A stretch of 64,000 nt of DNA from an uncultured Lachnospiraceae bacterium. Its GTDB lineage: Bacteria; Bacillota; Clostridia; Christensenellales; Pumilibacteraceae. Shown piece by piece: positions 1,623 to 53,918 of the stretch. The notes beneath the pieces were generated by a model that was not told the origin of the DNA, searched no databases, and saw only the letters and a list, made by a program, of their open reading frames with translations. Position 1 is the stretch's first letter. Each line of letters starts with the position of its first letter. The translations under genes and the position numbers were made by a program. The stretch covers positions 24,674-88,673 of the forward strand of contig CAZQAC010000001.1 of NCBI GenBank assembly GCA_964591125.1, read 5' to 3'.

Positions 1623-2510
1623 TCAGTGTCGCAACCTCATTACTTTTGCGATAACAAGCCAAATCAGATTTGCGATAACAATAGGAACATAACATAGCGT
1701 CGATATAACAGCCAATATAATAGCCCACAAAATCGAAATCAAAGGCAAAGCCAAAAGAGTCGAAAAGAGAAAAACATATTGAGGTTGATATATTTTGTAA
1801 TTAGAAGCATAACTTTTATTGCTTTTTCCTATTTCAAGATTTTCATTGAAAATATCAAAAATCATATTCCAAAGACCGATATAATATTGTTTTGCCGCAT
1901 AAGAAAACTGCGATAATTCCACAGACGCGGTAAAATCAAAAGCGAACATCTCGCCTATATAATCTTTTTTCGTGTTTTTGACCGACCAAAAAACGGAATA
2001 AAAACAAGCAAACAAAAATGCTATTGTAAAATATGCAAGCAAAGCGCCGACAATGATTTGAGCAAAGAATAAAAAAATCATAATTTGCAAACCGATAACG
2101 CCGATTACAATCGCCGTACCCAAAACAACTACCGCGACAGCAACCATAAACCACATCCAACGCTTAGGCGACAACAGCCTGTATTGCCCCGATTTTGCCA
2201 ATGCATTCGAAGCAACCGACATATTTTCTTTAAACGAATATTTCGACGCAACCAAAATAATCGTTACCCAACGTTTTAATAAAGCCCAAAACGAATGAAT
2301 TTCGCATCCGCTTAATTCCCTTACTGCAACGACAAAAGACTTTACATAAACAATGAGCGCGTAAATTGCGGCGATTCCTACTCCCACCGCAAGAAATACG
2401 CTCAAGACCATCAAGCCTATAGAAGAAAATATAGCCGATACAAAAATTAATATAATGATGGTAACTAATATACTGGATAAAATATTTCCGAATAGTTTTC
2501 TGCCAAACAT
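1623..2510 (-). CDS. Polytopic membrane protein (about 6-8 TM); last gene of the Hsp70/GTPase operon
   Basis: ORF 1623..2522 begins at a TTG. The ATG at 2510 (MFGRKLF) has GAGG 6 nt upstream and lies 8 nt after the stop of the 89-aa gene. Long hydrophobic segments throughout. No family motif recognised. Confidence 0.75.
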   Translation of the reverse strand: MFGRKLFGNILSSILVTIIILIFVSAIFSSIGLMVLSVFLAVGVGIAAIYALIVYVKSFVVAVRELSGCEIHSFWALLKRWVTIILVASKYSFKENMSVASNALAKSGQYRLLSPKRWMWFMVAVAVVVLGTAIVIGVIGLQIMIFLFFAQIIVGALLAYFTIAFLFACFYSVFWSVKNTKKDYIGEMFAFDFTASVELSQFSYAAKQYYIGLWNMIFDIFNENLEIGKSNKSYASNYKIYQPQYVFLFSTLLALPLISILWAIILAVISTLCYVPIVIANLIWLVIAKVMRLRH

Positions 2511-2518
2511 TTTTCGCC

Positions 2519-2788
2519 TCAATATAATAATTGCAACAGTTTATTCCAAAACTTTTCATTTGCTTCGATAAGAGCTTTTTTACCGCTTTTCAAAACAATG
2601 GAAATAATATACTTACTTTTCATAATGCCGGAAGTTTGATTAACGATTTCATATTTCGAAACCGTATCTTTACTTATTTCTTCACGATTTAGGATATTCG
2701 TAAAATACAATCGCGGTTTATGCAATAAATTAAAGCTTTCGACAATATCCCAGCCCTTAAAATCTCCGGCAATTATTTTACTTTTCAT
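2519..2788 (-). CDS. Small soluble protein of unknown function (89 aa), operon member
   Basis: RBS GGAGGTG directly upstream of the ATG. Non-hydrophobic sequence that looks beta-rich. Tightly coupled to the downstream membrane protein. Confidence 0.7.
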   Translation of the reverse strand: MKSKIIAGDFKGWDIVESFNLLHKPRLYFTNILNREEISKDTVSKYEIVNQTSGIMKSKYIISIVLKSGKKALIEANEKFWNKLLQLLY

Positions 2789-2930: not shown

Positions 2931-4442
2931 TTATATACTTTTGCCCCACTTTTTTTTCAAATCTATCGATGGGCATACTTTATCGATTATCCAAAGAGCG
3001 GGCTCATAAACTCCGTTCGGAGAAAACGGAGTTCCGTCTTCGTTGTGTCCCAGCGCACTACACGTAAAGAATTGTACGCTTTTGAACTTGGACTTCAGAT
3101 TATTTAGGAAATTCTCTTCTTCATAATCTTGCAAGAATTTTTCGCAAACAACGTTCTTTGCCGCAAATTTATCCTTTATTTTTCCATCTTTCAAAAGATT
3201 TTGAACGGCTTTTTCGCCGATTAGTTCATCTATTCCGGGAATATCGCATTTATTGAATACAAGCAAAACGTCCGTTTTTAACATATCTTTTGAATTGAGG
3301 TTATACATATTCTGCAATGTGTTTACGAGAGAACTTAACACTTCGTCCATGGATTTTTGGCTAATCGTGTACGCGGTTAAATCCACGGATTTTTCTATGG
3401 ATTTTCTGTACGCGTTAATGGACAGCGGATCGACGACCATAATAAATGCTGAGGCATAACGGAAGCCGAGCTGATGCTCCAACGCAGAATTGTTATCGTA
3501 AGCTTCACCTGCCACATCACAAAAAGATATTAAATTGCGAACTTTGACTTTTTTGGGGGTTAGATAAAACTGATAATATTTTAATTTTTGATTATCCGTT
3601 TTGGGAAGACGGTGTCCTTGCTCCAATGCCATTTTGTTATCGGCGTAATCGTCATCGAGCAAATCGTTATTAATGTATTCAAAAACAAGATCGTTTTCGG
3701 AAGCTTTTTTTTCGAGCTCGCTAATAGCCATATTAATGAAGCATGATTTACCCGAACCCGTTCCGCCGACTACCGGAATACACCTGTCTACTTGCAAACC
3801 GTTAGAATGAAGTTCGTATTCACAATGCGGGCAAATCCATTTACCGGGCAACTTATGACGTCCGTTAAGAAAGGTCGTCGGCAATACTCTGCCGCATTCG
3901 CATTTTCGATGCATTATTCCGTAGCGACTCGGAACAAGATTCGTATGAATCGCGCCGCACTCGCATACATATGCCGGCAACGCGTATTTTCTTTGACAAT
4001 TCGGACAACTGGTAGATATGTTTTTAATATGATTATATAAAAAGTCGATAAATTTAACGATAACAAAGTATATATATGTAAACAAAAAGAAAACACTTAA
4101 AATTATCGTATGCAATACCGACATAATCGCCGTAACGACAATGGTTATCAAAGTTCCGCCAACCAATTTAAATAGAAAAAACGAAAATTTTATAAGAGAC
4201 CAAATGCCGCTAAAAAATTCCGACCATTCGAAATCGTCTCCGCTTAGACCGAAAGAAATGCATTTTTGGAACAAATACCCGACATGCTTTAATTTTTGCA
4301 AGCCCAACAACGCAAGCCCCAATTGAGCCGCAGAAGTTTTCATATGCCCTACGCATCTTTGAAAAGCATTTTTTATTGTGTTTACAAATTCAACATATCC
4401 GCCTTTAAAGAAATAATTTATAAATGCAGGTTGTTTTTTCAT
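2931..4442 (-). CDS. Membrane-anchored zinc-ribbon P-loop GTPase (TRAFAC-type motifs)
   Basis: 503 aa with RBS AGGAGA. N-terminal ~130 aa is hydrophobic (2-4 TM). Cysteine pairs CPNC..CECG..CECG..CPHC indicate two zinc ribbons. GTPase motifs: G1 GGTGSGKS, G3 DVAG, G4 NKCD, G5 CSALG. Confidence 0.85.
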   Translation of the reverse strand: MKKQPAFINYFFKGGYVEFVNTIKNAFQRCVGHMKTSAAQLGLALLGLQKLKHVGYLFQKCISFGLSGDDFEWSEFFSGIWSLIKFSFFLFKLVGGTLITIVVTAIMSVLHTIILSVFFLFTYIYFVIVKFIDFLYNHIKNISTSCPNCQRKYALPAYVCECGAIHTNLVPSRYGIMHRKCECGRVLPTTFLNGRHKLPGKWICPHCEYELHSNGLQVDRCIPVVGGTGSGKSCFINMAISELEKKASENDLVFEYINNDLLDDDYADNKMALEQGHRLPKTDNQKLKYYQFYLTPKKVKVRNLISFCDVAGEAYDNNSALEHQLGFRYASAFIMVVDPLSINAYRKSIEKSVDLTAYTISQKSMDEVLSSLVNTLQNMYNLNSKDMLKTDVLLVFNKCDIPGIDELIGEKAVQNLLKDGKIKDKFAAKNVVCEKFLQDYEEENFLNNLKSKFKSVQFFTCSALGHNEDGTPFSPNGVYEPALWIIDKVCPSIDLKKKWGKSI

Positions 4443-4680: not shown

Positions 4681-7449
4681 TTAATCGTCGTCTTTATTTG
4701 TTTTATCTTTTTTTCCGAATCCGAAAATCTGAGAGAAAAAGCCTCCGCCTTCCTTTTTGTCTTTCTCTTTCTTATCGTTGTTTTTCTTTTTTTCTTCTTT
4801 TTTATTGACAAAACCTAACTGTTCCGTGAAAATTTGTATATTTTGCTTAAATTGTTCCGGAACCGACGAAAGAATATCGCCAATTAATCTCTCTGCCTTT
4901 TTTCTGTTGGAAAAACTGCCTATATAATAATTAAGAAGCCCCCTCAAATCATCGGCAAAGCTATAATGATAATTGCAAGCAAATACAAACATATCGGATA
5001 ACAAAATCATACTGTTCTTCGTATTAGATTTTGCCATTACATTCATAAATTCGCTTTTGAAATACCTACTTTTTATAAGTTCGCTAAATAATAAAGTCAA
5101 AACCCTCATATTATTATTGCAAATATAGTCATCGTTTTTTTCATTGGAGTTTTGCACGGTGCGATAATTTAAATAAATGTTAACTATAACGCAAAGATAA
5201 TTTGCGACCAATTCGTCTATTTGCCTTTCGTTAAGAATCGGAGTTACGAACGAATTGTATTGTATTAACTTTTCAACGAACCAGACGGTAGCCTCTTTGC
5301 TCCCCTCAGCCGTCTTTAGATTTTGTATTAAATCGACATAATTTCTTTTCGGATCGAGTTCGATGCGGTTATTATATAATTTACTGTCTAAATCCTTTCT
5401 AAGCGACGTTTCTTGCGCGGAATATTGAAGTATGTATTCCGCAGACGGCTCATACATTTTTTTGTGAATGTAAAGCAATACGTCTTTCATATCTCCCCGA
5501 TTAATATCCACGCCGGTACGACATATATCCGAATATATTTCAAAACAACTTTTTTCGTTAGGAGAATGTGCCAAATAGTACTTAAGCTTTTCTAAATACA
5601 ACCCTCTATCAAAGCCTTTAAGATAATAATTATTAAAATAATTATTTAAATCGGATCTGACGATATTGTTATTTACGCTGAACGCATATGTTTCGCGAAT
5701 TATTTTGAAATTAGAAAATCTCTGCTCTCGTATAAGTTCGTTTTCGAGCGCCGAATAAAGCGAAGGGTTGTTGTTATAATATTTCGTATACTCCGAAATA
5801 AAATGCGAAGATTGCTCATTCATTTCAACCACTCGTTTAAGTATTTCAAGCTGTAACGATTGAGATTTTACCGCTTCTATAAAAAAGAACATCATACGAT
5901 TATTATTTTCGGCGTTATCGAATCGACATATCGTGTCCAAAATTAGTTTTTCTGCAAGCTTGCCCGAAACCGAATACGCTTCGGAAAGAAGTGTATTAAC
6001 TTCTTTAACTGTCTTTTCATTTGAATAAAAGACAAAAATATACAGCATAACCGAATAAATTTTATCAGAACCCGAGTGCGATAATTCTTTAAGAAGAGTC
6101 ACATAAATCAAATTATTCCATCTAAAATCGTTTTGACTCGCAAAACCCGCAGCAAAACTGTTTTGCGCTACAAGATATTGTAAAAATTCGCTTGCAGAAA
6201 ACGGTGCAGCCGAAAAAAACGATTCGACATATTCCAAAGCGTCCGCCGATGACGACGCATAATTTTCAATATGCGAAATATAATAATCTATTAGATTTTT
6301 TCTTATCGCCGTATCTCCGTATCGATACATCCGTTTAAGAAGAGCCGCCGAAATCGTCACATCATTCCATTTTTTCTGAACAAAATACGAACTATAAATG
6401 TTGCTAACCGCATCATTGGGCGTTAAAATGTTATATTTTTCGGCAATATTGTTAGTTTCGATAAATTCATCGAAATTCGAAAACCACTGAACTCGATTAT
6501 TTTTAAGCATAAACAACGGAACTGCCTGCTCACGATTGCAATCGTATGCGTTACAGAGATTATCGATTTCGTTAACGTATTCCAACGCTTCGAGAAGACT
6601 TTTACCGAGAGCGTCGCGAATTCCGGCAATATACGCATCTAAAGAAATGCTTGCGATTATGTTTTTTGTTAAGTCAAAAATCGGTTGGCTTGTCGAAAAC
6701 GACGACACGGCTACATTTCGAATTGTAAGAGGTTTTGCTCCGGATAACCCGCTCGACGCATTAAAATTATTAACCGCGGCTATCTTAGAACCGAACGTTA
6801 CTTTTTCGCGCAACTGAGGAGGAAGAAACAATCCTATTGCGGTATACCATAATTCCAAATTGGCGTCGGTGTCGATCAAAACAACGGAACTGTCAGTATT
6901 CGCCGCATTTATAACAGCCTGCAACAATATAGGAAAACTCTGTTTTCTTTCGGCTGTCAAAAAAGCTTCGACTTCCCGAAAGTTCAACGCGTCGGGTTGA
7001 ATATCTATTTGCGGAAGCGTTTCCGGACAAGGGTTGTCATGCCATTCGACAAATTCCAACTTACTTTTAAATTTATTTTTGTTTAAAAACGACATCGGAA
7101 ACATTTCGCCCAAACTGTCGAAAACATAAGCATGTATAAAAAAGTTGCCCCATCGCGTATCCTGACCGTATTCCGTTTTGCCGCTATAAACCCTACCTAT
7201 GAAATTTGATTCCGCCAAAACTTTTTTGCCCGTTGACAACACAAAATAAGCGTATTTCGTCGGACACGCTTTTTTTATTTCTTCTTCTGACGCCTCGTAA
7301 AGATTAACACCCGAAGGGTTCTTATACGTCATAAGTTGATGAATTTCTTCACCTTCCGCATCGGTAATATCCGCCGTTTTCGACCAAACGGTAAAATCGC
7401 CGTTTTTTTGTTTTCCGCATGCCGTAAATATATACTGAGAAACTAACAT
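4681..7449 (-). CDS. Large (922 aa) alpha-helical protein of unknown function with a Lys/Glu/Asp-rich C-terminal tail
   Basis: Uninterrupted 922-aa ORF with RBS GGAGGAGGA. I recognise no catalytic motif. C-terminus is KKEEKKKNNDKKEKDKKEGGGFFSQIFGFGKKDKTNKDDD. Confidence 0.85.
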   Translation of the reverse strand: MLVSQYIFTACGKQKNGDFTVWSKTADITDAEGEEIHQLMTYKNPSGVNLYEASEEEIKKACPTKYAYFVLSTGKKVLAESNFIGRVYSGKTEYGQDTRWGNFFIHAYVFDSLGEMFPMSFLNKNKFKSKLEFVEWHDNPCPETLPQIDIQPDALNFREVEAFLTAERKQSFPILLQAVINAANTDSSVVLIDTDANLELWYTAIGLFLPPQLREKVTFGSKIAAVNNFNASSGLSGAKPLTIRNVAVSSFSTSQPIFDLTKNIIASISLDAYIAGIRDALGKSLLEALEYVNEIDNLCNAYDCNREQAVPLFMLKNNRVQWFSNFDEFIETNNIAEKYNILTPNDAVSNIYSSYFVQKKWNDVTISAALLKRMYRYGDTAIRKNLIDYYISHIENYASSSADALEYVESFFSAAPFSASEFLQYLVAQNSFAAGFASQNDFRWNNLIYVTLLKELSHSGSDKIYSVMLYIFVFYSNEKTVKEVNTLLSEAYSVSGKLAEKLILDTICRFDNAENNNRMMFFFIEAVKSQSLQLEILKRVVEMNEQSSHFISEYTKYYNNNPSLYSALENELIREQRFSNFKIIRETYAFSVNNNIVRSDLNNYFNNYYLKGFDRGLYLEKLKYYLAHSPNEKSCFEIYSDICRTGVDINRGDMKDVLLYIHKKMYEPSAEYILQYSAQETSLRKDLDSKLYNNRIELDPKRNYVDLIQNLKTAEGSKEATVWFVEKLIQYNSFVTPILNERQIDELVANYLCVIVNIYLNYRTVQNSNEKNDDYICNNNMRVLTLLFSELIKSRYFKSEFMNVMAKSNTKNSMILLSDMFVFACNYHYSFADDLRGLLNYYIGSFSNRKKAERLIGDILSSVPEQFKQNIQIFTEQLGFVNKKEEKKKNNDKKEKDKKEGGGFFSQIFGFGKKDKTNKDDD

Positions 7450-7465
7450 GGTATCCTCCTCCCCT

Positions 7466-8596
7466 TTATCTTTTAACTTTCTTTATATAATTTTTTTCCG
7501 CAAACAACCACAATAGCGGATCCAAAACGCGATGCGGCTGTATTTGAGAACCGGAAATTTTCATATCGTTAGGAACATCACCTAATGCGCTTACACCGAA
7601 TAGCGAATATTTCTCAAAATTTTTCATACATTGAAGCACTTCGCCCTCAAGCCAATGCGAAAGCAAATCTTCAAGCTCGGTATTGACGCTTTCTTGATCT
7701 TGAAGAACGAAAACTCCGCGTTTTAAATGTTCGGATTCGCTTGCGACCGCATAATCGTTTCTGATTACGCCATATTTAATAAGCGCGTCTATTTTTGTGA
7801 AAACGACAGCTAACGGCGTTTTTATGTTGCCCTTTGTCTTTTTGACGTTTTTAATGTTGGTCACTATTCGATTTAATATTTCTACAACGTCGGTATTTTG
7901 CGGCGGTAAATTCATTTTTCCTTTAAGTTTTTCTCTAACCGGAGGTAATTGTAAAGGATCCAAAAGTAAAATAATACCGTCGGCATTAGGTATATAACGA
8001 TTAAAATGTATCATATTTTCCGCGTTGTCAAGATTTTCTCCCGCGGTATCGTAAAATGTAAGCGAAGCGGTATTTTTAATTCTGTTTTTATTATCCATAA
8101 AATTAATGGGAAACAGTAACGGCGGTATAACTCCGCTATCCGTTGCGGAAATGACATATCCGTCTACAAATAACGGTTTATAATAGTTTTCGTCATAATA
8201 ACGTTTAGATTCTTCGCTACAACAAATATTCAGCGAGCAATTAAAACTGTGCGACATTTTACGCTTGATTTCGTTTACGAGCACGCCTATGTAATTGGAT
8301 TTTCCCGAAGCTTTTGCTCCGACAAGCGCAATGGTCATACCGTTATTGGTTAAATAATCTCTCGGAATAACTTTTTCACTTTCTTTAAATTCGGGACAAT
8401 AGATATATAAGCTGGCTTCTTTGCAATTAAGGCATTTGCTTTTGCTTGTTTTTGGGATATACATCGACGGAATCTCTTTTTTTACTCCGGATGCGCAGAC
8501 TTCACGCGTTTGTCCGTTCATGTTATCGGAACATCTCATGTCACATTCCAATAATTCGTGTTTTCCGTAGCAATAAGGGCAAGTAAATTTGGGCAT
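7466..8596 (-). CDS. Soluble zinc-ribbon P-loop GTPase, paralog of 2931..4442
   Basis: Start placed at ATG 8596 (MPKFTCPYC, RBS AAGGAGA) instead of the ORF-track 8650. N-terminal CPYC..C..C and CLNC..C cysteines. GTPase motifs: G1 GAKASGKS, G3 DTAG, G4 TKID, G5 VSALG. Confidence 0.85.
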   Translation of the reverse strand: MPKFTCPYCYGKHELLECDMRCSDNMNGQTREVCASGVKKEIPSMYIPKTSKSKCLNCKEASLYIYCPEFKESEKVIPRDYLTNNGMTIALVGAKASGKSNYIGVLVNEIKRKMSHSFNCSLNICCSEESKRYYDENYYKPLFVDGYVISATDSGVIPPLLFPINFMDNKNRIKNTASLTFYDTAGENLDNAENMIHFNRYIPNADGIILLLDPLQLPPVREKLKGKMNLPPQNTDVVEILNRIVTNIKNVKKTKGNIKTPLAVVFTKIDALIKYGVIRNDYAVASESEHLKRGVFVLQDQESVNTELEDLLSHWLEGEVLQCMKNFEKYSLFGVSALGDVPNDMKISGSQIQPHRVLDPLLWLFAEKNYIKKVKR

Positions 8597-8613
8597 ATAA
8601 AATTCTCCTTTCT

Positions 8614-11600
8614 TTAAAGTGTATTGACTTCTCGAAGTCTTACGTCGCATTTCTCGTCGGATACAAATATATTAAATTTCATATTCTTTGCAGTCGGAGC
8701 GAGCTTAACCGTATATTTTCCCGTATATTTATTTGAGAAAAAGCCTTTCTTCAACTGTATCGGCTCGATACGTTCAACAAGTTCTCCTTCCGTTTTATCG
8801 ATCGGACGAGGATATCCTTTTATTAAAAGCAAAGAAGGTATCGTAACTTCGGAATTTGCTTCGAATAAAATATTTAATTTAAATTGTTTTAACGCCGAAA
8901 CAGAATAATCGAGTTTATAATGAACGAATACTTTTTCTCTTTCGCCCAAAACTTCATCTATCACAAACGGCTGAGAATAAGATAAAATTCCGTTTAATCT
9001 AAATTCAGAAAAAACCGAAACGTAACTCAGCGTATTTGCTTTTAGTTTTAATTCAGCTTTGCCGTCTCGAACAAAATCGACGCGTTTATATCTAAAACAT
9101 TCGCCGTCATCCTCCATCGTTTTCGGGAAAGCTTTGTTGCTCACTTTCAAAACTAAATTTTCGGCTTTTTCGTTTATATTGCCCTTAACAACAAGCGAAC
9201 CCGACAGCAACTCGTATTCGAGCGCCTGACCTTTTATTGTATTGAAAACAATCGGCTCCGAAATTATAAATAATTGCTCGTTTTGAGCAACCGGATACAA
9301 CCAACCGATTTTTCCTTCGGGCAGATTAACAAGAGTATTTCCTTCTATATCCACAGACGTAGATAATTTCGTTAAACCTTTCGCCACCGTGCCAAAATCC
9401 GCAAGCCTCTGCGTTTTATTATACGGTAACGGTTGTTTGCTCTCGGAATAAAACATGCTTATCGCGTTAGCATTTTCGTCGCTGTTAAAAATATACTGGT
9501 TTCCGTGTGCAAATGTAATTCTTGCGTTTGTAATTTTATTTAATACTTTAAACGGGGTAAATACCGATCTGATACCTCGCGACAATATCTCATTTCCGTC
9601 GACGACGTATTCGCAAACAATTAAATATGCCGCTTCTCCCGAAACGTCGTAATCGGCAAAACCGGACAAATCGCAAGAAACAGATTCGCCGTCACCGATC
9701 TTCTCGGGGGCGATATTGCCTCTCTTCTTAAACACTTTGACAGCCTTGACGTTTTGCGGAGCTTTCCAGGTAACTTTTATACAATCATTAACTATTTCTT
9801 GATGGATCTGAGTAACCTCGGCGTAAATAATCGGCGCTTGAGTTGTAACTAATTTAGATTTAATTCCGCAACGATCGGCAAAAACCGCATAATAATATTT
9901 AGTCGCCGGAACGACTGCGAGATCTTCATAAAACATGATCGACAAATTTTCGGCAACAATCGATCCGTCATCCGGTCCGGTCGGACATACGCCTATTTTT
10001 TTAATTATCGTAAAACTTACGTTTTCCTGCGCAGCCGTAACCGACCATTCTATTTTCATGGAATTGCCGGAAATAAAAGTTCGCACTGAAGTCGGCGCAT
10101 TAGGAGGATATTTCTTTAAGATTGCTCTCGATTCTTCACAATCTTCGCATAATTCGTTAACTTTTACAGCATTCGCGATTGCCGTTTTAGAATCGTTTTT
10201 TTCCGCAGCCCCTTTTGCTATAGTAAGAAATTGACGAATCTTGCTCAGTTCCGTAGAAATCGAAGAAAGAAAAGCTGCCGTGCTGTTTGCATTATAGGTC
10301 AAATATTTTTGTTTTAACGTTTTTGCCAAAGCTTCCGCCGAAAAAAGCTTTTTTTCGGCAATGAGCTTCTTCAATTTTGCTTCGTCTTCTCGATAAGATT
10401 TACCTAGTTTTTCCTCTACCGCTTTAAGATTTTTAATCGAGTCTTCATAGCTTTTTATTTTCTTGCTTACAACCGAATTGGGCTTTGACAAATAATCGGG
10501 AAGAATATTACACAATTCAAGAAACGCGTTATCGAGTTTGGAAATATTCGGTTGCGATTGACTTAATAAAGCATCGATTTCGCTTGATTTTTGCTGCAAT
10601 TTTTCTTCCGTTTGCTTGGCGGCTCCGCAACTCGGACAAGTTTGCTTGTCTTTGGAATAAGCCATTCTTTCACCGCAATTCCAGCAAATGATTTCAAGAG
10701 GTTTACCGCAGTGAGGACAGCTTTTTGCGCCTTTTTTATAAATTTTGTTACAGTACGGACATGTATCGAAATTGCTCTCGTCTTCCTTGCCACTTACAAA
10801 CAACTTATAATAATTACAACCTACGGAAAGTATTTTTTCGGCTTCGTCAACGGTTACGCCAAGCGCGTCCACGGCAACCTGAACAAACTCCTCGTATTCT
10901 TCCATGGAAAGATTAAGACCGTAAACGTTTTTAAGTTTAAACTTTTCCCATATACTGTCTTTTAATTTTAAATAATAATCATAATTAGACCGATATTTTG
11001 CATCTTTATTTAGCAACAATTGCGTCATACTTCCGCACAGTCCGCTTATAGCTTGTTTTAATTTTAAATCGGCTGTTTTTGAAGCATTCGAATTCGCGGT
11101 TTTTATGGCAGCGGATATTTCGTCGCTTGTGGCATTAGCTTTAACCCCCAAAAACTCATATAAATCTCGCTTCTTTACCACTTTTAACATGTCTTCAACT
11201 TCTTTATATTTATTAAAAGGCATGCTTTTATCGATATTATCTATTATTTTAATACCTTGCTGCTGCAAATAATCGATTTTTGTTTTCAGCTCATCTAACG
11301 TAAAATAATTATTGGCTGCATGGCGAATGTTTTCCAAATCGCTAACCAAAATAAACTTTCGATTGGATTTCGTGCACATATCCTGAATTATTTCCACCGC
11401 TTCCGAAAGCTTGAATTCTTTTGCACGAGCAGCTTCCTCTTTACGAGCGCCTTTTTTCGGTTCGTAAACTTCACCGTTTAATTTAGCGTCGTTGCACATT
11501 ACTTCAAGAATATTTTCTCTAAGCTCCAAAAGTCGTTTTTTGTGCAAGTTAGTACCGCTGGCATCCCCAAGTATTGTTTTTACTTTTTGCTCGATATTCT

Positions 11601-11697
11601 TCGAATTGGTTTCAGTAATATCGAAAGCAAATGCAATAAAATAATTAAACTTCGGATCTTTTAATTCTTCCGCAGTTCTTTGTGCATGAACAGCCAT
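8614..11697 (-). CDS. 1027-aa multidomain protein: J-domain-like segment (no HPD), double zinc ribbon, coiled-coil region, beta-rich (Ig/FN3-like) C-terminal half
   Basis: RBS AGAGGAG. Residues ~177-240 (KKRDLYEFLGVKANATSDEISAAIK...) resemble J-domain helices I-II. Residues 313-357 are CPYC..CPHC..CWNC..CPSC. The C-terminal ~480 aa is rich in short beta-strand patterns. Confidence 0.8.
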   Translation of the reverse strand: MAVHAQRTAEELKDPKFNYFIAFAFDITETNSKNIEQKVKTILGDASGTNLHKKRLLELRENILEVMCNDAKLNGEVYEPKKGARKEEAARAKEFKLSEAVEIIQDMCTKSNRKFILVSDLENIRHAANNYFTLDELKTKIDYLQQQGIKIIDNIDKSMPFNKYKEVEDMLKVVKKRDLYEFLGVKANATSDEISAAIKTANSNASKTADLKLKQAISGLCGSMTQLLLNKDAKYRSNYDYYLKLKDSIWEKFKLKNVYGLNLSMEEYEEFVQVAVDALGVTVDEAEKILSVGCNYYKLFVSGKEDESNFDTCPYCNKIYKKGAKSCPHCGKPLEIICWNCGERMAYSKDKQTCPSCGAAKQTEEKLQQKSSEIDALLSQSQPNISKLDNAFLELCNILPDYLSKPNSVVSKKIKSYEDSIKNLKAVEEKLGKSYREDEAKLKKLIAEKKLFSAEALAKTLKQKYLTYNANSTAAFLSSISTELSKIRQFLTIAKGAAEKNDSKTAIANAVKVNELCEDCEESRAILKKYPPNAPTSVRTFISGNSMKIEWSVTAAQENVSFTIIKKIGVCPTGPDDGSIVAENLSIMFYEDLAVVPATKYYYAVFADRCGIKSKLVTTQAPIIYAEVTQIHQEIVNDCIKVTWKAPQNVKAVKVFKKRGNIAPEKIGDGESVSCDLSGFADYDVSGEAAYLIVCEYVVDGNEILSRGIRSVFTPFKVLNKITNARITFAHGNQYIFNSDENANAISMFYSESKQPLPYNKTQRLADFGTVAKGLTKLSTSVDIEGNTLVNLPEGKIGWLYPVAQNEQLFIISEPIVFNTIKGQALEYELLSGSLVVKGNINEKAENLVLKVSNKAFPKTMEDDGECFRYKRVDFVRDGKAELKLKANTLSYVSVFSEFRLNGILSYSQPFVIDEVLGEREKVFVHYKLDYSVSALKQFKLNILFEANSEVTIPSLLLIKGYPRPIDKTEGELVERIEPIQLKKGFFSNKYTGKYTVKLAPTAKNMKFNIFVSDEKCDVRLREVNTL

Positions 11698-11740
11698 GTT
11701 TTAACTCCTCTTTTGTATTTTGATTGTTTTTGGGGTTCGT

Positions 11741-14131
11741 TTAGAATTTAAATTTATTACCCAAAAAATTAGAATTCTTCAATTTTTGTTCTTTATGATA
11801 ACCAAATCTTTCAACGTTTGCAAGCCAAGCCGCAGCATTAACGACATATCTGTCCGTCCCCGCACTCTCCCATTTGCAATAAAGTCGAGTATAACCGCCA
11901 TCCGCCAACACGCGTCTTCCGTTATCGTCGCAACAAGCCGTAACTACGCCCAGATCGGAGCCGTATACCAAAGGCTTTAATATGCTTGTCGTATGCACGT
12001 CCGCGATTGTTTCTCCTTCATAAAAGTTTACCAATCCCGTTGTTATCGGATGATTTTCTATAATTCCGGGTTGTCCCGCCGTGTGCTGTATCGATATAAC
12101 CTTGCATCCGTGTAAATTACCGTCCATATATGTTCCGAACAATCTATCCAAAATAGCATTTGCATCCACATACCACGGATCATTGTCGCCCCACAAGTAA
12201 ATGCCGTGACCTTTTTGATAATAATCGTAAATAAGCTCTAAACATCTGTCGTCAATGTGACGCTTTACTCCGGAGATTACCCATAATTGAGAATCAGGTT
12301 CCGACAAAATACTTTTCAAAGACAAATACGATGGCGTTTCGCTATATTCTTGCACTTCAAAGCCTTTTCTTGCCAATGCAACTTTGGGCTTTCCCATAAT
12401 ATCATCATAAGTTCCGCTTGTTCCGTCATTGCCGAAATTCAAAACGATAATTTTATAGCCCTTAAACGCTCCGTCTTTCGCAAGATCGAATTCTCCGCCT
12501 TGCGGATTGCCGTATCGGTCGGTTGTAGTCGAAGGTATGTTGCTGATTCCCGCCCATTGAGTGTACGGGGTATTCATCGCTTGTTTATATTCTGCTTCCA
12601 ATTTATCGCAAATAGAATCCAAAGATTCCGTAATACTTACTCTTTGCACAGGCAAAGGGTTTCCGTTAGAATCTTTGGCGGTAACTTCCACAACGCCGTT
12701 TTGGTTGTATAAAAACGCAACCGAAAAATCATTTTGAACCCCTTTTTTCAGGTTGCTTAAGACATATTTATCCAAAAGCAAACATTCGTAAGGATTTTCG
12801 GATTCGCCTTGCAAAACATAAATCTCGGTAGAATCACTTTTGACGTTATACTTCTTTTCTTTTGCAATGCCGATTTTACTGTTTTTTTCAAGTATAATGC
12901 TGTTTATAAATTTAACACTCGTTTCGCTTATAGCCGAAGTAGCAAGCAATCCGAGACTGTGCGCGGTTATGTCTTTAATGTCGGAATTGTGAATAGTCAA
13001 AGCCATCGGTTGACTGCTTCCGTTTTTGGACGGTCCCATCAAAGTAATTACGTTGTTTACGCAAAGTTCGGCTTGCATTGCCGCACCGGTCGCAACAATC
13101 GTATCAACGTTTATATCTTTGGTTACAGGCGCTTTTCCGTATTCTTTTATAATCCTTTCTTTTACTTGCGGCATTCTCGTCGAACCGCCCACAAGCACGA
13201 CTTCGTCGATGTCTTTCCAACCGAAAGGACGTTGTTGTTGAACACTAATTTCTTCGAAACACCTATCTATAAGCAAAAAGGTTTCGTTTAATAAGCTTTC
13301 CGTTCTTTCTTCGAACATTTCCTTCGTAACTTCGTATTTTCCGCTACAACCTTCGCACGATGCCTGTATCAACGTTGTTGCAACCGACGAAAGTCTTTTT
13401 TTGGCATCTTCGCATTTAACCTGTAACTCTTTGAAATCATCCGAATGAGAACGAATGTCGATGCCGAACTCCGAATAAAATTGATCAATAACTTCGTTGA
13501 TCAAAACATCGTCCCAATTCATTCCGCCCAATTGATGATTACCGTTGGTTGCCGTTACGTTTATACCTGTTCCTTCAACGTGCGCGATAGTTACGTCAAA
13601 CGTACCTCCGCCGAGATCGTATACCATTACGTTTTTATTTTTATCGCCTGTCAAACCGTACGCGATTATTGCCGAAGTAGGTTCGTTGATAATTTTCAAC
13701 ACGTTCAATCCCGCTTTTTGAGCCGCACGCATTGTTGCTTCTCTTTGCTTATTGTCAAAATAAGCCGGAACGGTTATTACGGCGTTTTCGATCGTCACAT
13801 CGTTTGTTTGTTCGATATCCTTCTTCAATTCAGAAAGAAAAAGTCCTGACAAATCTTCTGCAGAATATTCCGTATCTTCCAAATATGCGCTATAACACGG
13901 GTTACACATCATGCTCTTATAAAAAGCAGCTGTATTTATATTACCGGATTTCTGTTCGTTTTTTGCGTCTTCACCAATCAACACGTTTCCGTTATCTAAG
14001 CACACAACAGACGGCGTTGTTTCTTTGCCCAAACTGTTTTTTAATACTTCGACACGATTATTTTGTTTAGAAAATACCGCTACAGCCGAATAAGTTGTTC
14101 CGAGATCTATTCCGACGTTTATTTTTTTCAT
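11741..14131 (-). CDS. Hsp70/DnaK-family ATPase with a ~260-aa non-canonical C-terminal extension
   Basis: Start at ATG 14131 ([24 protein letters not shown]); the ORF-track start 14143 is a TTG. Hsp70 signatures present: [30 protein letters not shown]. The C-terminal ~260 aa is unlike an Hsp70 lid. Confidence 0.9.
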   Translation of the reverse strand: MKKINVGIDLGTTYSAVAVFSKQNNRVEVLKNSLGKETTPSVVCLDNGNVLIGEDAKNEQKSGNINTAAFYKSMMCNPCYSAYLEDTEYSAEDLSGLFLSELKKDIEQTNDVTIENAVITVPAYFDNKQREATMRAAQKAGLNVLKIINEPTSAIIAYGLTGDKNKNVMVYDLGGGTFDVTIAHVEGTGINVTATNGNHQLGGMNWDDVLINEVIDQFYSEFGIDIRSHSDDFKELQVKCEDAKKRLSSVATTLIQASCEGCSGKYEVTKEMFEERTESLLNETFLLIDRCFEEISVQQQRPFGWKDIDEVVLVGGSTRMPQVKERIIKEYGKAPVTKDINVDTIVATGAAMQAELCVNNVITLMGPSKNGSSQPMALTIHNSDIKDITAHSLGLLATSAISETSVKFINSIILEKNSKIGIAKEKKYNVKSDSTEIYVLQGESENPYECLLLDKYVLSNLKKGVQNDFSVAFLYNQNGVVEVTAKDSNGNPLPVQRVSITESLDSICDKLEAEYKQAMNTPYTQWAGISNIPSTTTDRYGNPQGGEFDLAKDGAFKGYKIIVLNFGNDGTSGTYDDIMGKPKVALARKGFEVQEYSETPSYLSLKSILSEPDSQLWVISGVKRHIDDRCLELIYDYYQKGHGIYLWGDNDPWYVDANAILDRLFGTYMDGNLHGCKVISIQHTAGQPGIIENHPITTGLVNFYEGETIADVHTTSILKPLVYGSDLGVVTACCDDNGRRVLADGGYTRLYCKWESAGTDRYVVNAAAWLANVERFGYHKEQKLKNSNFLGNKFKF

Positions 14132-14162
14132 TTTTTTCTCCAATGTTTTTAACTAAAAGAGC

Positions 14163-14221
14163 AGGCTGCAAAACGATTTTACGATGATTACGATAATTCG
14201 GTAAAATATTTTTTGCAGCCT
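14163..14221 (-). promoter_or_regulatory. Intra-operon stem-loop in the 212-nt gap between the two Hsp70 genes (possible attenuator, partial terminator or processing site)
   Basis: aggctgcaaaa (14163-14173) pairs perfectly with ttttgcagcct (14211-14221), with a 37-nt loop. On the minus strand the stem is followed by gctcttttag. No classic U-run. Confidence 0.3.
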
Positions 14222-14343
14222 TGCCGATTTTAGTACGACTTTTTATTGTTAAGGTTAAAAAGATAAATAATTATAACTTTTTTCGATACATTACAAAACC
14301 GATAGCCGACGTCACGATTTTCACCGCAACGAAAATTATCAAA

Positions 14344-16002
14344 TTATTTTAATGTCATAGCGGAAACCGCAGCCATACCTTCTTGATTAGACTCTTCGCT
14401 CTTAAGTCTCGGATGCATTTCATATGTTTTATTGTTTTTCAAATCCGTCAATTTAAGAGTAATCAAACTATTTGCGTCAACATTCATCTCTATCGAAACC
14501 GGCGTATTTCCGGGAACCGAATTTTCAAGCTTAATAGGCTCTTCCGCATAAATCTCATTACATATATCAAGTTCCACAACTCTTTCGAGACTATCGCTTT
14601 CAAGAACAAGGATTTCTATCGAATCGATAGGCGTAGGGTCATTGGAAAACACCAACGAAAAATAATCCGCAGATGCACCGTAGGCCGGTTTTTGCGTATC
14701 TTTTATAATCAAATTGAGAACTTTATTCCTTTGAGCTTTTTGATCAAAAAAACGGAATCCGTAAGATTTTGTTACGTTTTCTATGAATTCGGTGTTTCCG
14801 ATTTTCGTTCCGCCGTTTTCGGTAGTCTCTATCAAAGAAAGAACGTTCGATAACGCGGAACCGGATTCCTGCGAAAGCGATTCGAGTATTTCTCCGTTTT
14901 CGTTTTGGAAAGAATATTCGTTGGCAACAAGAGCCGCGCCCATCGCAACAGCTTTATTGGGTTCGTACTGAGCAAGCGGTTTACCATATTCTTGTTCAAG
15001 CTTTTTCGATACCTGCGGCATATAAGTAGAACCGCCTACAAGAATAATTTCGTCGATATCGTTTATGCTCATGCTTTTTGCCGCTAACATTTCATTCACA
15101 AGCAATATGGTTTCTTCAAGCTTGCCGGATGTAACCTCGTCGAATTCTTGACGGGTTACCTCTATTTTCTGTCTTTGACCGTCGAAACTCGGAGTTAAAG
15201 ACGTCGATTCGCGGCTCGTAAGCATCTTCTTTGCTTTTTCGATATTTTCCGAAAACCAAGCGACGCACTCCGGATCGTTTTTCATTTCTGTCTCATCGCA
15301 ACCGGTTTCTTCGCAGAATTTTTCTCGAACGAGGTTTGCAAAAGCTTCGTCCCAATCCTTTCCGCCAAGCTGATGATTTCCGCCGGTCGTAATAACGCTG
15401 ACCGTTTTTTCTCCGCTCGCGATTTTAAGCTTCATAACCGTACAGTCGAACGTACCGCCGCCGAGATCGTATATAAGAACAGTTTTGTCCATGTCCTCCT
15501 TTCTCGAATCGGCATATGCGATTGCAGCCGAAGTCGGCTCGTCCAATATTCTGAGTACGTTTAATTTTTTTCCGTTTGAAAGTTCGACGTTTTCGCCGGC
15601 GAATTTAGTAGCGTTCTTTGCTTCGACTCCGAAATAAGCAGGAACTGTTATTACGGCACCGTCAATCTCTTCGCCTATGGCACTTTCCGCATCGGCAATC
15701 AACTTCTTCAAAATCAATGTCGAAACAGCCGCAGACGAATATTCCGTTCCGTTTGCAAAGAAACGATAATCAGCATTACCCATAAAGTTTTTTACTCTTT
15801 CGCAAAGACAGTCAGGATTCATTGCGCCTTCCGCTCTTGCCGTAGAACCAACAACCGCGCTTCCGTCCGGATCGAAATAAACGACCGAAGGAGTAGTTTG
15901 CTCGCCCTCCATATTGTCCACTATTCTTAAAACTCCGTTGTCATCGACATAGCTTACGCAAGAATACGTAGTTCCCAAATCTATTCCTATTTTCTTACTC
16001 AT
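14344..16002 (-). CDS. Hsp70/DnaK-family ATPase (552 aa, truncated substrate-binding region)
   Basis: RBS AAGGAGA. Signatures [31 protein letters not shown]. About 60-90 aa shorter than canonical DnaK and lacks the helical lid and EEVD-type tail. Confidence 0.9.
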
Positions 16003-16034
16003 AAATTTTTTCTCCTTATGAAATAATTAACTTT

Positions 16035-16322
16035 TTAACTTTTGTTTGCTTCGTTCCAAAGCTTATCGTATTCGTCAAACACCGCATCTATTACGGCATC
16101 GTCAAGCTCTATTTCAAAACTACTTTCGCCGTTTTTCTGCGTTACTTTAAAAACCAACGCTTCGTCTTCGTCCATGCCTTCAAGTAGTTCTACAGGTTGC
16201 AATATAGCATAAAAATCGCCTCGATATTGTATCCCGGCAATCTCTATAAAATCTATATCTTCGCCATTTGCACTTTTTAACGTAACAATATCGTCTTCAC
16301 AATAATCATGATCAGCAATCAT
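16035..16322 (-). CDS. DUF1292-like small acidic protein (95 aa)
   Basis: Start at ATG 16322 (MIADHDY, RBS GGAGAAGG); the ORF-track start 16343 is a TTG. Pattern IVTL..NGEDIDFIEIAGIQY..FYAILQPV...ALVFKV is typical of DUF1292. Confidence 0.75.
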   Translation of the reverse strand: MIADHDYCEDDIVTLKSANGEDIDFIEIAGIQYRGDFYAILQPVELLEGMDEDEALVFKVTQKNGESSFEIELDDAVIDAVFDEYDKLWNEANKS

Positions 16323-16355
16323 TGTCCTTCTCCTATTTTCCAAACCGTTTAGTCG

Positions 16356-16868
16356 TCATTTTTTCCAAGTTTTTTTAATTTTCCTAAAAACTCGCCGCAT
16401 TATAAGGAACGAAATCAATCCGCCTACTGCGCTAAACAAAGCAATACCGATCCCGCCAGAGACAAGAAGAACTATTGCCGAAACAGAATTAAAAACAAAA
16501 AAAACCGCGCTGATTATTAATATTACGCTCAAAAAAATGGTTTTTAAGCCTTTCCCAGCTGTTTTCGTGGCAACATGAGCTGTTTCTGCAAACGTGTTTT
16601 GCTCATTTTTAATTTTCTTGTTACCCGACTGATTTATAAGTTTATCATATTCTAAGAACACTGCGTCCAAAACGTTTTCGTCGCGTTCGAGCAGATAATT
16701 ATTTTTTCCGTTTTCATACAATACTTTGTAAACCGAAATTTTCTCGTCTCCGTTTACAGATCTTAATATTGCATAAAATTCGTCTCGATATTGTATCCAA
16801 GCTAACTTTACAAAATCGACCGATTCGCCGTATTCGTTTTTTATTGTAATAATATCATCATCAGCCAT
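16356..16868 (-). CDS. DUF1292-like domain fused to a C-terminal two-TM anchor (170 aa)
   Basis: RBS AGGTGA. N-terminal IITIKNEYGESVDFVKLAWIQYRDEFYAILRSV. The C-terminal 60 aa is hydrophobic, followed by a basic tail (RRVFRKIKKTWKK). Confidence 0.75.
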   Translation of the reverse strand: MADDDIITIKNEYGESVDFVKLAWIQYRDEFYAILRSVNGDEKISVYKVLYENGKNNYLLERDENVLDAVFLEYDKLINQSGNKKIKNEQNTFAETAHVATKTAGKGLKTIFLSVILIISAVFFVFNSVSAIVLLVSGGIGIALFSAVGGLISFLIMRRVFRKIKKTWKK

Positions 16869-16914
16869 TATTTTTCACCTAAAATTGATAAAGTTTAAAT
16901 TGATGTTACTAAAA

Positions 16915-17457
16915 TTATTTTTTCGATATAGTCTTAATAAACTTTTTAAGCGACCAACGTCCGACTAAAAACGAAATTACTCCGAAAATCGCGCAACCGA
17001 GCAATTGCGAAAAATCAAACGGATCGCATCCGTCTTGTACCGAAACGCATGCCGCAATAAAAACGACGGCGCATTGGAATGTAATTGCGCCCCATAAAAC
17101 AGCCATAACGATTTTCGAAGTTTTCTTTGCCGCCGCTTGAATATTATTAAAGGCGTTTCCCTTGCCTTGCGATTTTTTGACTTTGCCGCCGTTGTTAGAT
17201 GCGTTCCAAAGCTTATCGTATTCCTTGAACACCGCATCTATCACGCTATCGTCAAGCTCTATTTCAAAACTCTCTTCGCCGTTTTTCTGCGTTACTTTAA
17301 AAACCAACGCCTCGTCGTCTCCCATGCCTTCAAGAAGCTTGACGGGTTGCAATATAGCGTAAATATTGCCTTTGTATTGTATTGCGGCTATTTTTTCAAA
17401 ATCGATATTTTCGCCGTTCGCGCTTACTAAAGTGATTATGTTATCGTTATTTGCCAT
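16915..17457 (-). CDS. DUF1292-like domain fused to a C-terminal two-TM anchor (180 aa)
   Basis: RBS GGAGAA. N-terminal IITLVSANGENIDFEKIAAIQYKGNIYAILQPV. Hydrophobic C-terminus with a basic tail. About 165 bp of its DNA is ~89% identical to 16035..16322. Confidence 0.75.
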   Translation of the reverse strand: MANNDNIITLVSANGENIDFEKIAAIQYKGNIYAILQPVKLLEGMGDDEALVFKVTQKNGEESFEIELDDSVIDAVFKEYDKLWNASNNGGKVKKSQGKGNAFNNIQAAAKKTSKIVMAVLWGAITFQCAVVFIAACVSVQDGCDPFDFSQLLGCAIFGVISFLVGRWSLKKFIKTISKK

Positions 17458-17490
17458 CTTTCCAATTCTCCAAAATATTTTTAATTTTTA

Positions 17491-18552
17491 TTATCCTCGC
17501 ACTTTACAAACATCTACTTTTGCAGGATAAATCACTTTATCGTCCGATTTGTACAAATCGGTATAAACCTTAACAATCTTTCCGTTCTTTTCTGCTTCGT
17601 CGGAAGAAATCGGAATAAACTTCATTATCCGATGCAGTTTCGGCTCATAAGTATCTCCCGCGGCAAGCGCGTGTTCTACAGTAACTTGGCATAAATTCAA
17701 AACCGTTTCGGTTTGATCTAAAACCATACGAAGAATGTTTTTATACATTTCCGTCAGTTCGGACAAATCCGCTTCGTCGGACCGAGCGACAATCGCGTCT
17801 ATATCGTTTTTTGTTTTAATATAATATCCTACAAGTTGTCTGATAACCGGATAAAGCACGACTTGCTGTATATTACGCTCGGTGAGCGAGGATAGCTTAA
17901 TATACTCCCCAACTACAATATCAAGCATCGCGTTATCTTTTAAAAGAGATTTTATTTCTTCCGTCTTTTTATCAAATAAAGAAATGACGTCGCTCTGAGA
18001 ATAGCTTACGTTTTCCGAAATAGGTGCGACGTCTTCGTTCTGGGTTTCAGGAATAGGAGCAGAAAACGGTTGCACTCCGACGATCTCCGTCGCATTTATA
18101 TCGACGCCGTTTAAAATAACGGAACTTTCATTTACTTCTACGCCGATATTTTGCAATAACATCTCGTATTCGTCGGGAATATACAACAAATATTTCACGA
18201 TAGATTCTTTTTTTAATTCATATTGACCTGCATCTCTTAACGATTTAGCGCAATCTTCACGAAAATTAATAATATTCTGCGCAATCGATTTAAACAACTG
18301 CTTGCTGTAATCGTTTCTGTATTTTTGCAATTCGCTGTTCATTTTATAAAGATTCGCGTCTTTTTCTTTTACGATTTTTATAACGTTGCGAATATTAACA
18401 AACCAACCGTTAATAAGCTTTGCGAGATCTTCGTTCGGTATTTGTTGCACGCAAGAAGAATTTTTTTCGACGTTTGCAGTTTCATTCGAATTTACCGAAT
18501 CTTTTTCGTTTAAATCAAGCGATTCCTCTTGATTGATATCCGTATTTTCCAT
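17491..18552 (-). CDS. GrpE-like nucleotide exchange factor with a long acidic/coiled-coil N-terminal extension; first gene of the operon
   Basis: RBS GGAGGA. The C-terminal segment GDTYEPKLHRIMKFIP...GKIVKVYTDLYKSDDKVIYPAKVDVCKV matches the GrpE beta-domain pattern (G..FDP..H.A...V...GY....V.RPA.V.V.K). Confidence 0.7.
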   Translation of the reverse strand: MENTDINQEESLDLNEKDSVNSNETANVEKNSSCVQQIPNEDLAKLINGWFVNIRNVIKIVKEKDANLYKMNSELQKYRNDYSKQLFKSIAQNIINFREDCAKSLRDAGQYELKKESIVKYLLYIPDEYEMLLQNIGVEVNESSVILNGVDINATEIVGVQPFSAPIPETQNEDVAPISENVSYSQSDVISLFDKKTEEIKSLLKDNAMLDIVVGEYIKLSSLTERNIQQVVLYPVIRQLVGYYIKTKNDIDAIVARSDEADLSELTEMYKNILRMVLDQTETVLNLCQVTVEHALAAGDTYEPKLHRIMKFIPISSDEAEKNGKIVKVYTDLYKSDDKVIYPAKVDVCKVRG

Positions 18553-20143: not shown

Positions 20144-20259
20144 TATTAAATTCCTCCGAAAAATATTCGATTTCTCCAACATCTTCAATAATAACATAAA
20201 AGCCGCATATTGTCAAGAATATACGACCTTTTATGTTTTATAAATATTTCATGTCCCTA

Positions 20260-20841: not shown

Positions 20842-20951
20842 AAACGCACCTCCGAATCCACAAACGCAGCTTCTACTGCAACGCGTTTGTTTTTATATAA
20901 TACCACCTCGTCGGCGTTTTGTCAACAATTTGAACAATCTGTCGGCGTTTT

Positions 20952-21713: not shown

Positions 21714-21734
21714 TCTTAATTATCTTCCCGAAAA

Positions 21735-53582: not shown

Positions 53583-53688
53583 TTATCCACATTTTATCAA
53601 CATTTATCATTTAATTGTGGATAAAACTCTTTCAATCGACTAGTTTTGTATTTTACTTATCCACATAACATTAGTACAATGTGGATAA
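53583..53688. promoter_or_regulatory. Cluster of four perfect DnaA boxes (oriC core candidate)
   Basis: TTATCCACA at 53583-53591 and 53657-53665. The complement TGTGGATAA at 53626-53634 and 53680-53688. A very AT-rich tract lies immediately upstream (53490-53570), and a GTGGGGG cluster abuts box 1. Confidence 0.8.
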
Positions 53689-53918
53689 CACAATTATATT
53701 ATTTCCAAAAGAATTGCACAATTATTAACTAATTTTTAAACGAATCGTTTCTTCGAATAATTTTTCTTTTCTAAATTCCGTTGAAAAACTTCAAGATTTC
53801 AACTAAATTAGCCAATCATCTAACTTTTTTGTTGTTTCAATCGAAAACTTAATAATATAATTATAAGTTTTCGATTGCACTGTTTTTATAGTTAAACTAT
53901 ATAAATCTTTTATCTTCT

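Follow-up and report, generated by a model that had tools for sequence, protein, structure and literature searches.

A J-like domain lacking HPD in a predicted GAP1-N2-type double-GTPase operon with two Hsp70s and a GrpE homologue

A double-GTPase operon with a chaperone theme

Kaur, Burroughs, Iyer and Aravind defined the DO-GTPase and GAP1 families by comparative genomics (eLife 2020; PMC7159879). The parts of their paper devoted to this class describe systems with a single DO-GTPase or with two paralogues. These GTPases typically carry zinc ribbons at the N-terminus, and where there are two, one of them has transmembrane helices. According to the same parts, the GAP1-N2 protein is encoded downstream of the DO-GTPase, and rapidly evolving fibronectin type III (FNIII) repeats are fused to a DnaJ domain or to TPR repeats. 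The HSP70/GrpE theme of the class is presented there as a combination of an HSP70 with GrpE, to which are added another HSP70, a fusion of an FNIII protein with DnaJ, and zinc-ribbon GTPases, one of them with transmembrane helices. Here we describe an operon of ~17 kb that encodes two Hsp70s, a GrpE-like protein and a 1027-aa protein with a J-like domain in which the HPD tripeptide is lacking. It lies in a stretch of 64,000 nucleotides (hereafter the window) from an uncultured Lachnospiraceae bacterium (assembly GCA_964591125.1, contig CAZQAC010000001.1, positions 24,674 to 88,673 of the forward strand).

In the list of open reading frames (ORFs) of the window, the operon is an unbroken row of genes on the minus strand from 18552 to 1623. 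The part from 18552 to 8614 comprises the GrpE homologue, three DUF1292 paralogues, two divergent Hsp70s without a lid and the 1027-aa protein. Downstream of 8614 the row continues to ~1623 with a zinc-ribbon DO-GTPase, a GAP1-N2 protein, a membrane DO-GTPase and small membrane proteins. An earlier note on this DNA had proposed a private chaperone triad at 8614-18552. The genes in this span are indeed all real and the set is dedicated, but the triad is not autonomous: it is a fixed module of the DO-GTPase/GAP1-N2 operon, of which the proposed span covers only the first half.

Component by component, the window agrees with the description of Kaur et al., and the operon is therefore of a catalogued type and not a new kind of system. 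Shared with the systems as described in the relevant parts of that paper (PMC7159879) are the two paralogous TRAFAC-type zinc-ribbon GTPases, one of which is membrane-anchored, the GAP1 protein with an N2-type domain, the large repeat protein with a DnaJ-type domain, the two Hsp70 genes, the GrpE gene and the occurrence in Firmicutes. The 394-aa GTPase has an N-terminal CxxC...C zinc ribbon and is directly followed by the GAP1 gene, and the 503-aa GTPase, which is 40-85% identical among relatives, combines hydrophobic segments with CxxC motifs. Based on these sequence comparisons we consider the operon likely to belong to the HSP70/GrpE theme of the GAP1-N2-type double-GTPase conflict systems, and its pseudo-J domain likely to tether an Hsp70.

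What appears to be new is that HPD and the charge of helix II are universally lost from the J-like domain, that each of the two Hsp70s has a beta domain, that an unknown domain stands in for vWA, and that the operon contains a DUF1292 cassette. The terms "HPD" and "J domain" do not occur in the text of Kaur et al., as a text search indicated, and the loss of HPD is described here. The second Hsp70 is said, in the account of the theme in PMC7159879, to lack a peptide-binding domain, whereas both Hsp70s of the window possess a substrate-binding beta domain. A C-terminal domain other than vWA on this Hsp70 is not part of that account, and a text search of the paper did not reveal any mention of DUF1292. 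A further difference is that the FNIII identity of the repeats in the 1027-aa protein did not obtain statistical confirmation in our analysis.

The same gene order was encountered in 12 other loci from genomes of uncultured Clostridia, Christensenella, Anaeroplasma and Treponema and from metagenomes (related loci are indicated by L or P numbers below). Where the flanks suffice, the core order, which is shared across phyla, is GrpE-like gene, 552-type Hsp70, 800-type Hsp70, J-like protein, zinc-ribbon GTPase, GAP1-N2 and second (membrane) GTPase, with a variable slot between the two Hsp70 genes. Even the distant relative P0091 (profile E=5e-79) keeps this order until its contig ends just past the first GTPase. 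Relatives in a collection of species-representative genomes are at most 42% identical. In an uncultured Clostridia metagenome-assembled genome (MAG; L006, GCA_947627955.1) the slot between the Hsp70 genes (5254-7548) is filled by a Syd-like gene, by a nuclease toxin of the Tox-HNH-HHH type and by an additional, third Hsp70 of 369 aa with no more than the ATPase domain. This arrangement looks like a polymorphic-toxin-style cassette within the chaperone module. Many related operons have an inserted TraG/VirD4-like or HerA-like ATPase, and integrase genes adjoin the system in L001 and L006. This combination of a constant core, swappable accessories, patchy distribution across phyla and mobile elements as neighbours would fit a conflict system.

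The pseudo-J domain, the Hsp70s and the GrpE-like protein

The 1027-aa protein consists of a conserved N-terminal region, the J-like domain, a double zinc ribbon, a helical region, two FNIII-like repeats and a beta-rich C-terminus. With the single sequence, the Pfam DnaJ match of the J-like element remained below threshold (E=0.015-0.08) and was confined to the first 20 profile positions, i.e., helix I, and a family profile was therefore needed. This profile, which was constructed from residues 140-310 of 19 homologues and searched against the PDB, yielded 41 matches with E<=10, of which 39 are J-domains. The best match, Tid1 (E=7e-6), is aligned over positions 3-71, i.e., the full length of the J-domain. 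The AlphaFold model of the domain (pLDDT 86.9) superposes on stand-alone J-domains at 2.0-2.9 Å, with TM scores (normalised to the target) of up to 0.70, and almost all of the top 30 Foldseek matches of this model are J-domains. The profile matches to the PDB and the superposition of the model together establish the four-helix J fold of residues ~177-245, and the earlier assignment of a J-like element to this protein is thus upheld.

The absence of HPD was also correctly noted before: the residues at its position are S-N-A (203-205), and the modelled loop between helices II and III reads S-K-T-A-D. It is, however, not an oddity of this gene. Among 1.84 billion representative proteins, a search with a profile of full length yielded 2164 relatives of the 1027-aa protein at E<=1e-3, and HPD was found in none of the 150 that align across the J-like region among the 176 sequences examined. 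The tripeptide at this position is not conserved in the family. The tyrosine just ahead of it is conserved, as is the hydrophobic core in the family alignment (L-Y-x-F-L-G, Y-D-x-Y-L and W). The mean net charge of helix II is -0.27 (sd 1.46, n=147), compared with +2 for the same 13 columns in both Tid1 and Sis1, whereas the helix III region has a net charge of +2.1 in the J-like family versus -1 and -2 in these two canonical J-domains. In canonical J-domains it is the basic face of helix II that contacts Hsp70. Since none of the 150 relatives has HPD and helix II is devoid of basic charge, the J-like element is, as judged from the alignments and the model, a family-wide pseudo-J domain that has kept the fold and lost both HPD and the basic helix II. 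Engagement of Hsp70 independent of HPD and use of the fold as a docking module had both been considered earlier; docking stays the most plausible reading, and we infer that the J-like domain most likely docks a dedicated Hsp70 onto the sensor protein.

The C-terminal half of the protein contains an FNIII-like sequence pattern (PP..P..V...V.L.W...YT..KK.G..P...DG...YYYAV.A). Faint signals of such repeats are present as precomputed Fn3_SaeA matches in two relatives and an fn3 match with E=0.98 in one, and profile matches to an "Fn3-like protein" (E=0.15) and to fibronectin (E=0.67) are weak. In an Anaeroplasma MAG (L015), a second full-length paralogue with J-like, zinc-ribbon and FNIII-like parts, ~32% identical to the protein of the window, ends the locus at 19884-22709.

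Both Hsp70s carry the motifs GIDLGTTYS, DLGGGTFD, the EPT glutamate and LVGGST(Y/R)MPQV, and at the place of the conserved K in the IKR motif of DnaK both keep a lysine. These motifs and the Pfam matches (Table 1) bear out the earlier remark that the ATPase signatures are retained. The two proteins are only ~40% identical to one another, and the longer one (800 aa) scores only 240 bits against Geobacillus DnaK; from these comparisons both are divergent paralogues and not standard DnaK. The 552-aa Hsp70, which is 59-64% identical to its counterparts in L001, L006 and L011, comprises a nucleotide-binding domain and a divergent substrate-binding beta domain without a helical lid. From Pfam alone it resembles a bare ATPase domain. 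When a profile of its C-terminal 190 aa from ten loci was compared with the PDB, however, substrate-binding domains of Hsp70s were matched (best E=1.2e-6), and the protein ends ~25 residues past the beta domain. The 800-aa Hsp70 likewise has a substrate-binding beta domain and no lid, as the Pfam HSP70 alignment reaches only profile position 499 of 599. It has a lysine, shared by 9 of 10 relatives, at the position of the arginine of the DnaK RIINEPT motif, which we take to be R167 of DnaK, the residue in contact with the HPD aspartate.

Beyond its beta domain, the 800-aa Hsp70 carries an unrelated, uncharacterised alpha/beta domain of ~270 aa (roughly 11744-12556 in the window). Its invariant motifs are G-H-G-x-Y-x-W-G-D-N-D-P and D-G-G-x-T-R-L. 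In the clade of the window this domain takes the place where relatives (L001, L006, L020) usually end in vWA. A degenerate vWA was considered and rejected, because the DxSxS motif is not conserved. No Pfam family and no relative in the PDB was found for the domain; the single hint was a match to a designed Rossmann 2x3 fold (E=0.02). It also occurs in >300 stand-alone proteins of ~360 aa that start with a zinc ribbon or a TerY_C module. Because these homologues are located in unrelated neighbourhoods of housekeeping type, genomic context gave no function for the domain.

The first gene of the operon was earlier assigned to GrpE, and our data support this. The 353-aa protein exceeds the gathering score of Pfam GrpE (PF01025) over residues 251-350 (41.1 versus 25.8 bits), and this family is also present in all full-length homologues. 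The nine best PDB matches of its AlphaFold model in Foldseek are all GrpE (3a6m: E=3.9e-4, TM 0.63, normalised to the target). This monomer model has a pLDDT of 69.5 overall, and its C-terminal part is good. It shows a long helix at 40-110, further helices at 186-287 and beta strands at 290-349, with residues 251-350 forming a helix bundle plus beta domain. Both the profile match and the model thus indicate that the protein is a GrpE homologue. The acidic, coiled-coil-like N-terminus of ~120 aa that had been ascribed to it was overstated: only the first ~40-45 residues are acidic (net -8 over 45 residues), and residues 40-110, which correspond to the usual long GrpE helix, have a positive net charge. 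Residues 1-38 are predicted to be disordered (pLDDT <50) and vary in length between homologues. An insertion at about 138-185 is modelled with low confidence.

Possible functions of the chaperone module

In the mechanism that we propose, the large, beta-rich 1027-aa protein would serve as a sensor or scaffold, and its pseudo-J domain would tether one dedicated Hsp70 without the canonical, HPD-triggered stimulation of the ATPase. The task of the GrpE-like factor would be a reset of the Hsp70s with respect to their nucleotide state, and the two GTPases with GAP1 would act as a membrane-proximal switch. Output would then proceed via the variable parts. Here these may be the alpha/beta domain on Hsp70-2 together with the trio of DUF1292 proteins, of which two have membrane anchors, and in relatives they may be the vWA domain, the TraG/HerA-type ATPase or the HNH toxin with the Syd-like gene.

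The module shares with the canonical DnaK-DnaJ-GrpE cycle the ATPase motifs and beta domain of Hsp70, the long helix and beta domain of GrpE, and the four-helix J fold. It differs in that HPD, the basic helix II, the G/F region, the C-terminal domains of DnaJ and the Hsp70 lid are all lacking, in the insertion and variable acidic tail of the GrpE-like protein, and in the linkage to GTPases and GAP1 instead of hrcA. A parallel for the pseudo-J domain itself is provided by mitochondrial Pam16/Tim16, a J fold without HPD that functions as a tether and regulator in a dedicated Hsp70 machine and not as an ATPase activator. Pam16, however, pairs with a true J-protein, Pam18, whereas a J-protein with HPD was found neither in this operon nor in any of the related loci examined, and beyond the general J fold there is no sequence relationship. 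Hsp70-family proteins in predicted defence operons with GTPases are also known from the CoCoNuT systems (CnuD/CnuCD; PMC11090510). The Hsp70-like domains of these systems have degenerate ATPase motifs and predicted RNA binding, and they are accompanied by McrB-type GTPases and type III restriction, whereas the ATPase motifs are intact here and GrpE and J-like partners are present. DnaJ or J-domains are not mentioned in the main text of that paper, and a search of it did not find GrpE.

It could be argued that the genes are simply the housekeeping DnaK, GrpE and DnaJ of the organism, since no other Hsp70, GrpE or J-domain gene occurs within the 64-kb window. This is, however, very unlikely in view of divergence, architecture and context. 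The Hsp70s have no lid and score 240 bits against a Firmicute DnaK, an XRE-type gene is found upstream where hrcA would be expected, and there is no DnaJ with HPD, G/F region or zinc-finger domain. Moreover, the genes form part of an operon with DO-GTPases and GAP1, and the module is patchy across phyla and occurs next to integrases. A further alternative is a membrane-associated machine that serves a mobile element in assembly or transport, for example a cytoskeleton-like or secretion-related one, and makes use of the actin-fold Hsp70s and the GTPases. This would explain why TraG/VirD4-like or HerA-like ATPases lie inside the operons of relatives with integrases alongside, and why many components are membrane-anchored. 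The copy in the window, however, has neither a TraG-like gene nor an integrase, and the toxin with Syd-like gene in L006 and the rapid swapping of accessory domains are typical of conflict systems, so that we regard such a machine as rather improbable.

The remaining alternatives concern the pseudo-J domain. It might be a purely structural helical module without contact to Hsp70, the Hsp70s being recruited via other parts such as vWA, the alpha/beta domain or GAP1. Neither of the canonical contact features (HPD and a basic helix II) is left, and conservation is mainly of the hydrophobic core (L179, Y180, L220, Y239, Y242, L243 and W250). On the other hand, wherever flanks are available the gene lies immediately downstream of two Hsp70 genes, and that the J fold is retained in >2000 relatives beside Hsp70 and GrpE genes can hardly be credited to coincidence; a structural role only thus seems unlikely. 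Conversely, the domain might still activate its Hsp70 via another interface, with helix II and HPD replaced by the basic stretch at which helix III begins and which, in the close family, reads K-T-N-D-L-K-K-K-Q. The near invariance of K207, D210, K214 and Q215 in the close family, the shift of charge towards the helix III region at the expense of helix II, and the presence of all catalytic motifs in the Hsp70s, from which some trigger of hydrolysis is to be expected, would be consistent with this. So would the replacement of the HPD-pairing arginine by lysine in the longer Hsp70 at most loci, which is compatible with a co-evolved interface. The helix III motif is, however, not conserved in the wider family, where variants such as K-T-T-P-E-G-T-A and K-T-A-E-N-T-A occur. 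We know of no precedent for a J-domain without HPD that stimulates the ATPase of Hsp70, which also weighs against this possibility, and we consider it rather unlikely.

We therefore prefer the conflict system with a tethering pseudo-J domain, although several observations weigh against it. The interpretation of the whole class as conflict systems derives entirely from comparative genomics, and a literature search yielded no experimental study of double-GTPase/GAP1 systems. Ten proteins of the operon had no meaningful match among the PADLOC models of known defence systems. The contact of the pseudo-J domain with one of the Hsp70s is putative, and the GrpE-like factor may serve either Hsp70. For FNIII repeats in the C-terminal half of the 1027-aa protein, Pfam searches with 28 members, the profile search of the PDB and an hhalign comparison with fibronectin FN10 were all non-significant. 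Finally, no integrase or other mobility gene adjoins the copy in the window.

A more far-reaching scenario is that the pseudo-J domain, the lid-less Hsp70s and the GrpE-like factor run an HPD-independent Hsp70 cycle gated by the GTPases and GAP1, in which the Hsp70s would clamp onto a protein of an invader or of the envelope, or polymerise on it, and this would itself constitute the immune output. This is speculative and, in our judgement, quite unlikely. If true, it would represent a bacterial chaperone-based effector with a J-protein logic unlike that of every characterised Hsp70 system. HPD is regarded as the sole indispensable feature of the action of J-domains on Hsp70, and a J fold without either HPD or a basic helix II, encoded beside intact Hsp70s and GrpE and with >2000 relatives in several phyla, is a natural test case. 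The compact operon of ~17 kb, from Firmicutes of gut type, would be tractable for a first experiment on the double-GTPase/GAP1 systems, which have been predicted since 2020.

Accessory genes, annotation and other features of the window

The features of the operon and the divergently oriented regulator gene are listed in Table 1. In the window and in L007 the DUF1292 genes follow the GrpE-like gene and lie just upstream of the first Hsp70, and L012 has one DUF1292 gene upstream of the GrpE-like gene. The function of DUF1292 is not known. Over ~80 residues the 102-aa protein is nearly identical to the N-terminal half of the 180-aa one, and this points to a recent duplication. L007 has orthologues of the 180-aa protein. 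The 170-aa protein gave no Pfam match below E=0.01. Two of the three tandem paralogues (16035-17457) have gained C-terminal double membrane anchors.

Table 1. Features of the operon and its divergent regulator gene, with window positions and the evidence for each assignment.
Feature	Position	Strand	Evidence
XRE-type helix-turn-helix regulator, 93 aa	18756..19037	+ (divergent)	Pfam HTH_31 E=9e-10, HTH_3 E=2e-9
GrpE-like nucleotide-exchange factor, 353 aa	17491..18552	-	Pfam GrpE 41.1 bits, E=1.9e-10; Foldseek on model; family alignment; charge profile
DUF1292 protein, 180 aa, two C-terminal hydrophobic segments	16915..17457	-	Pfam DUF1292 E=8e-9; segments read from sequence
DUF1292-like paralogue, 170 aa, two C-terminal hydrophobic segments	16356..16868	-	Similar to DUF1292 genes of L007 and L012; resembles both neighbours by eye
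Soluble DUF1292 protein, 102 aa	16035..16343	-	Pfam DUF1292 E=2.5e-7
Hsp70 paralogue 1, 552 aa	14344..16002	-	Pfam HSP70 E=2e-79, residues 5-363
Hsp70 paralogue 2, 800 aa	11741..14143	-	Pfam HSP70 E=7e-98, profile positions 2-499 of 599
Putative sensor/scaffold protein, 1027 aa	8614..11697	-	Family alignment; Pfam DZR E=4.6e-7
J-like (pseudo-J) domain, residues ~177-245 of 1027-aa protein	10963..11169	-	Family profile vs PDB; model; Foldseek
Double zinc ribbon, residues 312-365 of 1027-aa protein	10603..10764	-	Pfam DZR, Zn_ribbon_3, TerY_C; cysteines invariant in family alignment
DO-GTPase with N-terminal zinc ribbon, 394-aa ORF	7466..8650	-	Pfam DO-GTPase2 30 bits (cutoff 27); DO-GTPase1 weak
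GAP1 protein, 922 aa, GAP1-N2 + GAP1-M, lysine-rich polar tail	4681..7449	-	Pfam GAP1-N2 (PF20013) 51 bits (cutoff 24), E=2e-13; GAP1-M E=3e-4
Small hydrophobic protein, 67 aa	4459..4662	-	ORF; 67-aa gene at equivalent position in L005 and L007
Second DO-GTPase, 503 aa, N-terminal hydrophobic segments + zinc ribbons	2931..4442	-	Pfam DO-GTPase2 41.5 bits, E=1.5e-10
Small protein, 89 aa	2519..2788	-	ORF; 89-aa gene at equivalent position in L007
Polytopic membrane protein, 299 aa, at the end of the cluster	1623..2522	-	Counterparts at equivalent position

The listed starts of two ORFs are probably too far upstream, as relatives of the 394-aa GTPase and the 800-aa Hsp70 align from Met19 and Met5, respectively. 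For the GTPase, relatives align from residue 14-21 onward, and the true start is probably Met19 at 8596, which gives a protein of 376 aa and abolishes the overlap of 37 nt with the preceding gene. For the Hsp70 it is probably Met5 at 14131. The counterpart of the XRE-type regulator in L007 is 92% identical and its position is unchanged. The 299-aa membrane protein, for which Pfam contains no matching family, is 67% identical to its counterpart in L007, 54% to that in L005 and 34% to that in L010. The operon is flanked by ordinary genes, i.e., an ABC transporter on one side and, on the other, a TIM-barrel protein of the sugar-phosphate isomerase type and two ORFs that were read by eye as truA and glmM. 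Scans for promoters and terminators gave counts no better than chance, and TTGTCA-18-TATTAT, which precedes the GrpE-like gene at 18682-18653, is a consensus match only. Rfam gave no match anywhere in the window.

Elsewhere in the window, two AT-rich stretches of ~2.9 kb each (51650-54420 and 55330-58240; GC 0.23-0.33) lie on either side of a parB-like gene on the minus strand (54423-55331), with dnaN (58239-59342) immediately downstream of them. Neither stretch has an open frame of >80 aa in any of the six frames. The region, of which nearly 6 kb is apparently non-coding, contains no dnaA ORF, Rfam matches or large tandem repeats. A cluster at 53583-53688 comprises four perfect DnaA boxes and a further box with one mismatch, the cumulative GC skew reaches its minimum near 58-60 kb, and from its sequence the region looks like a replication origin.

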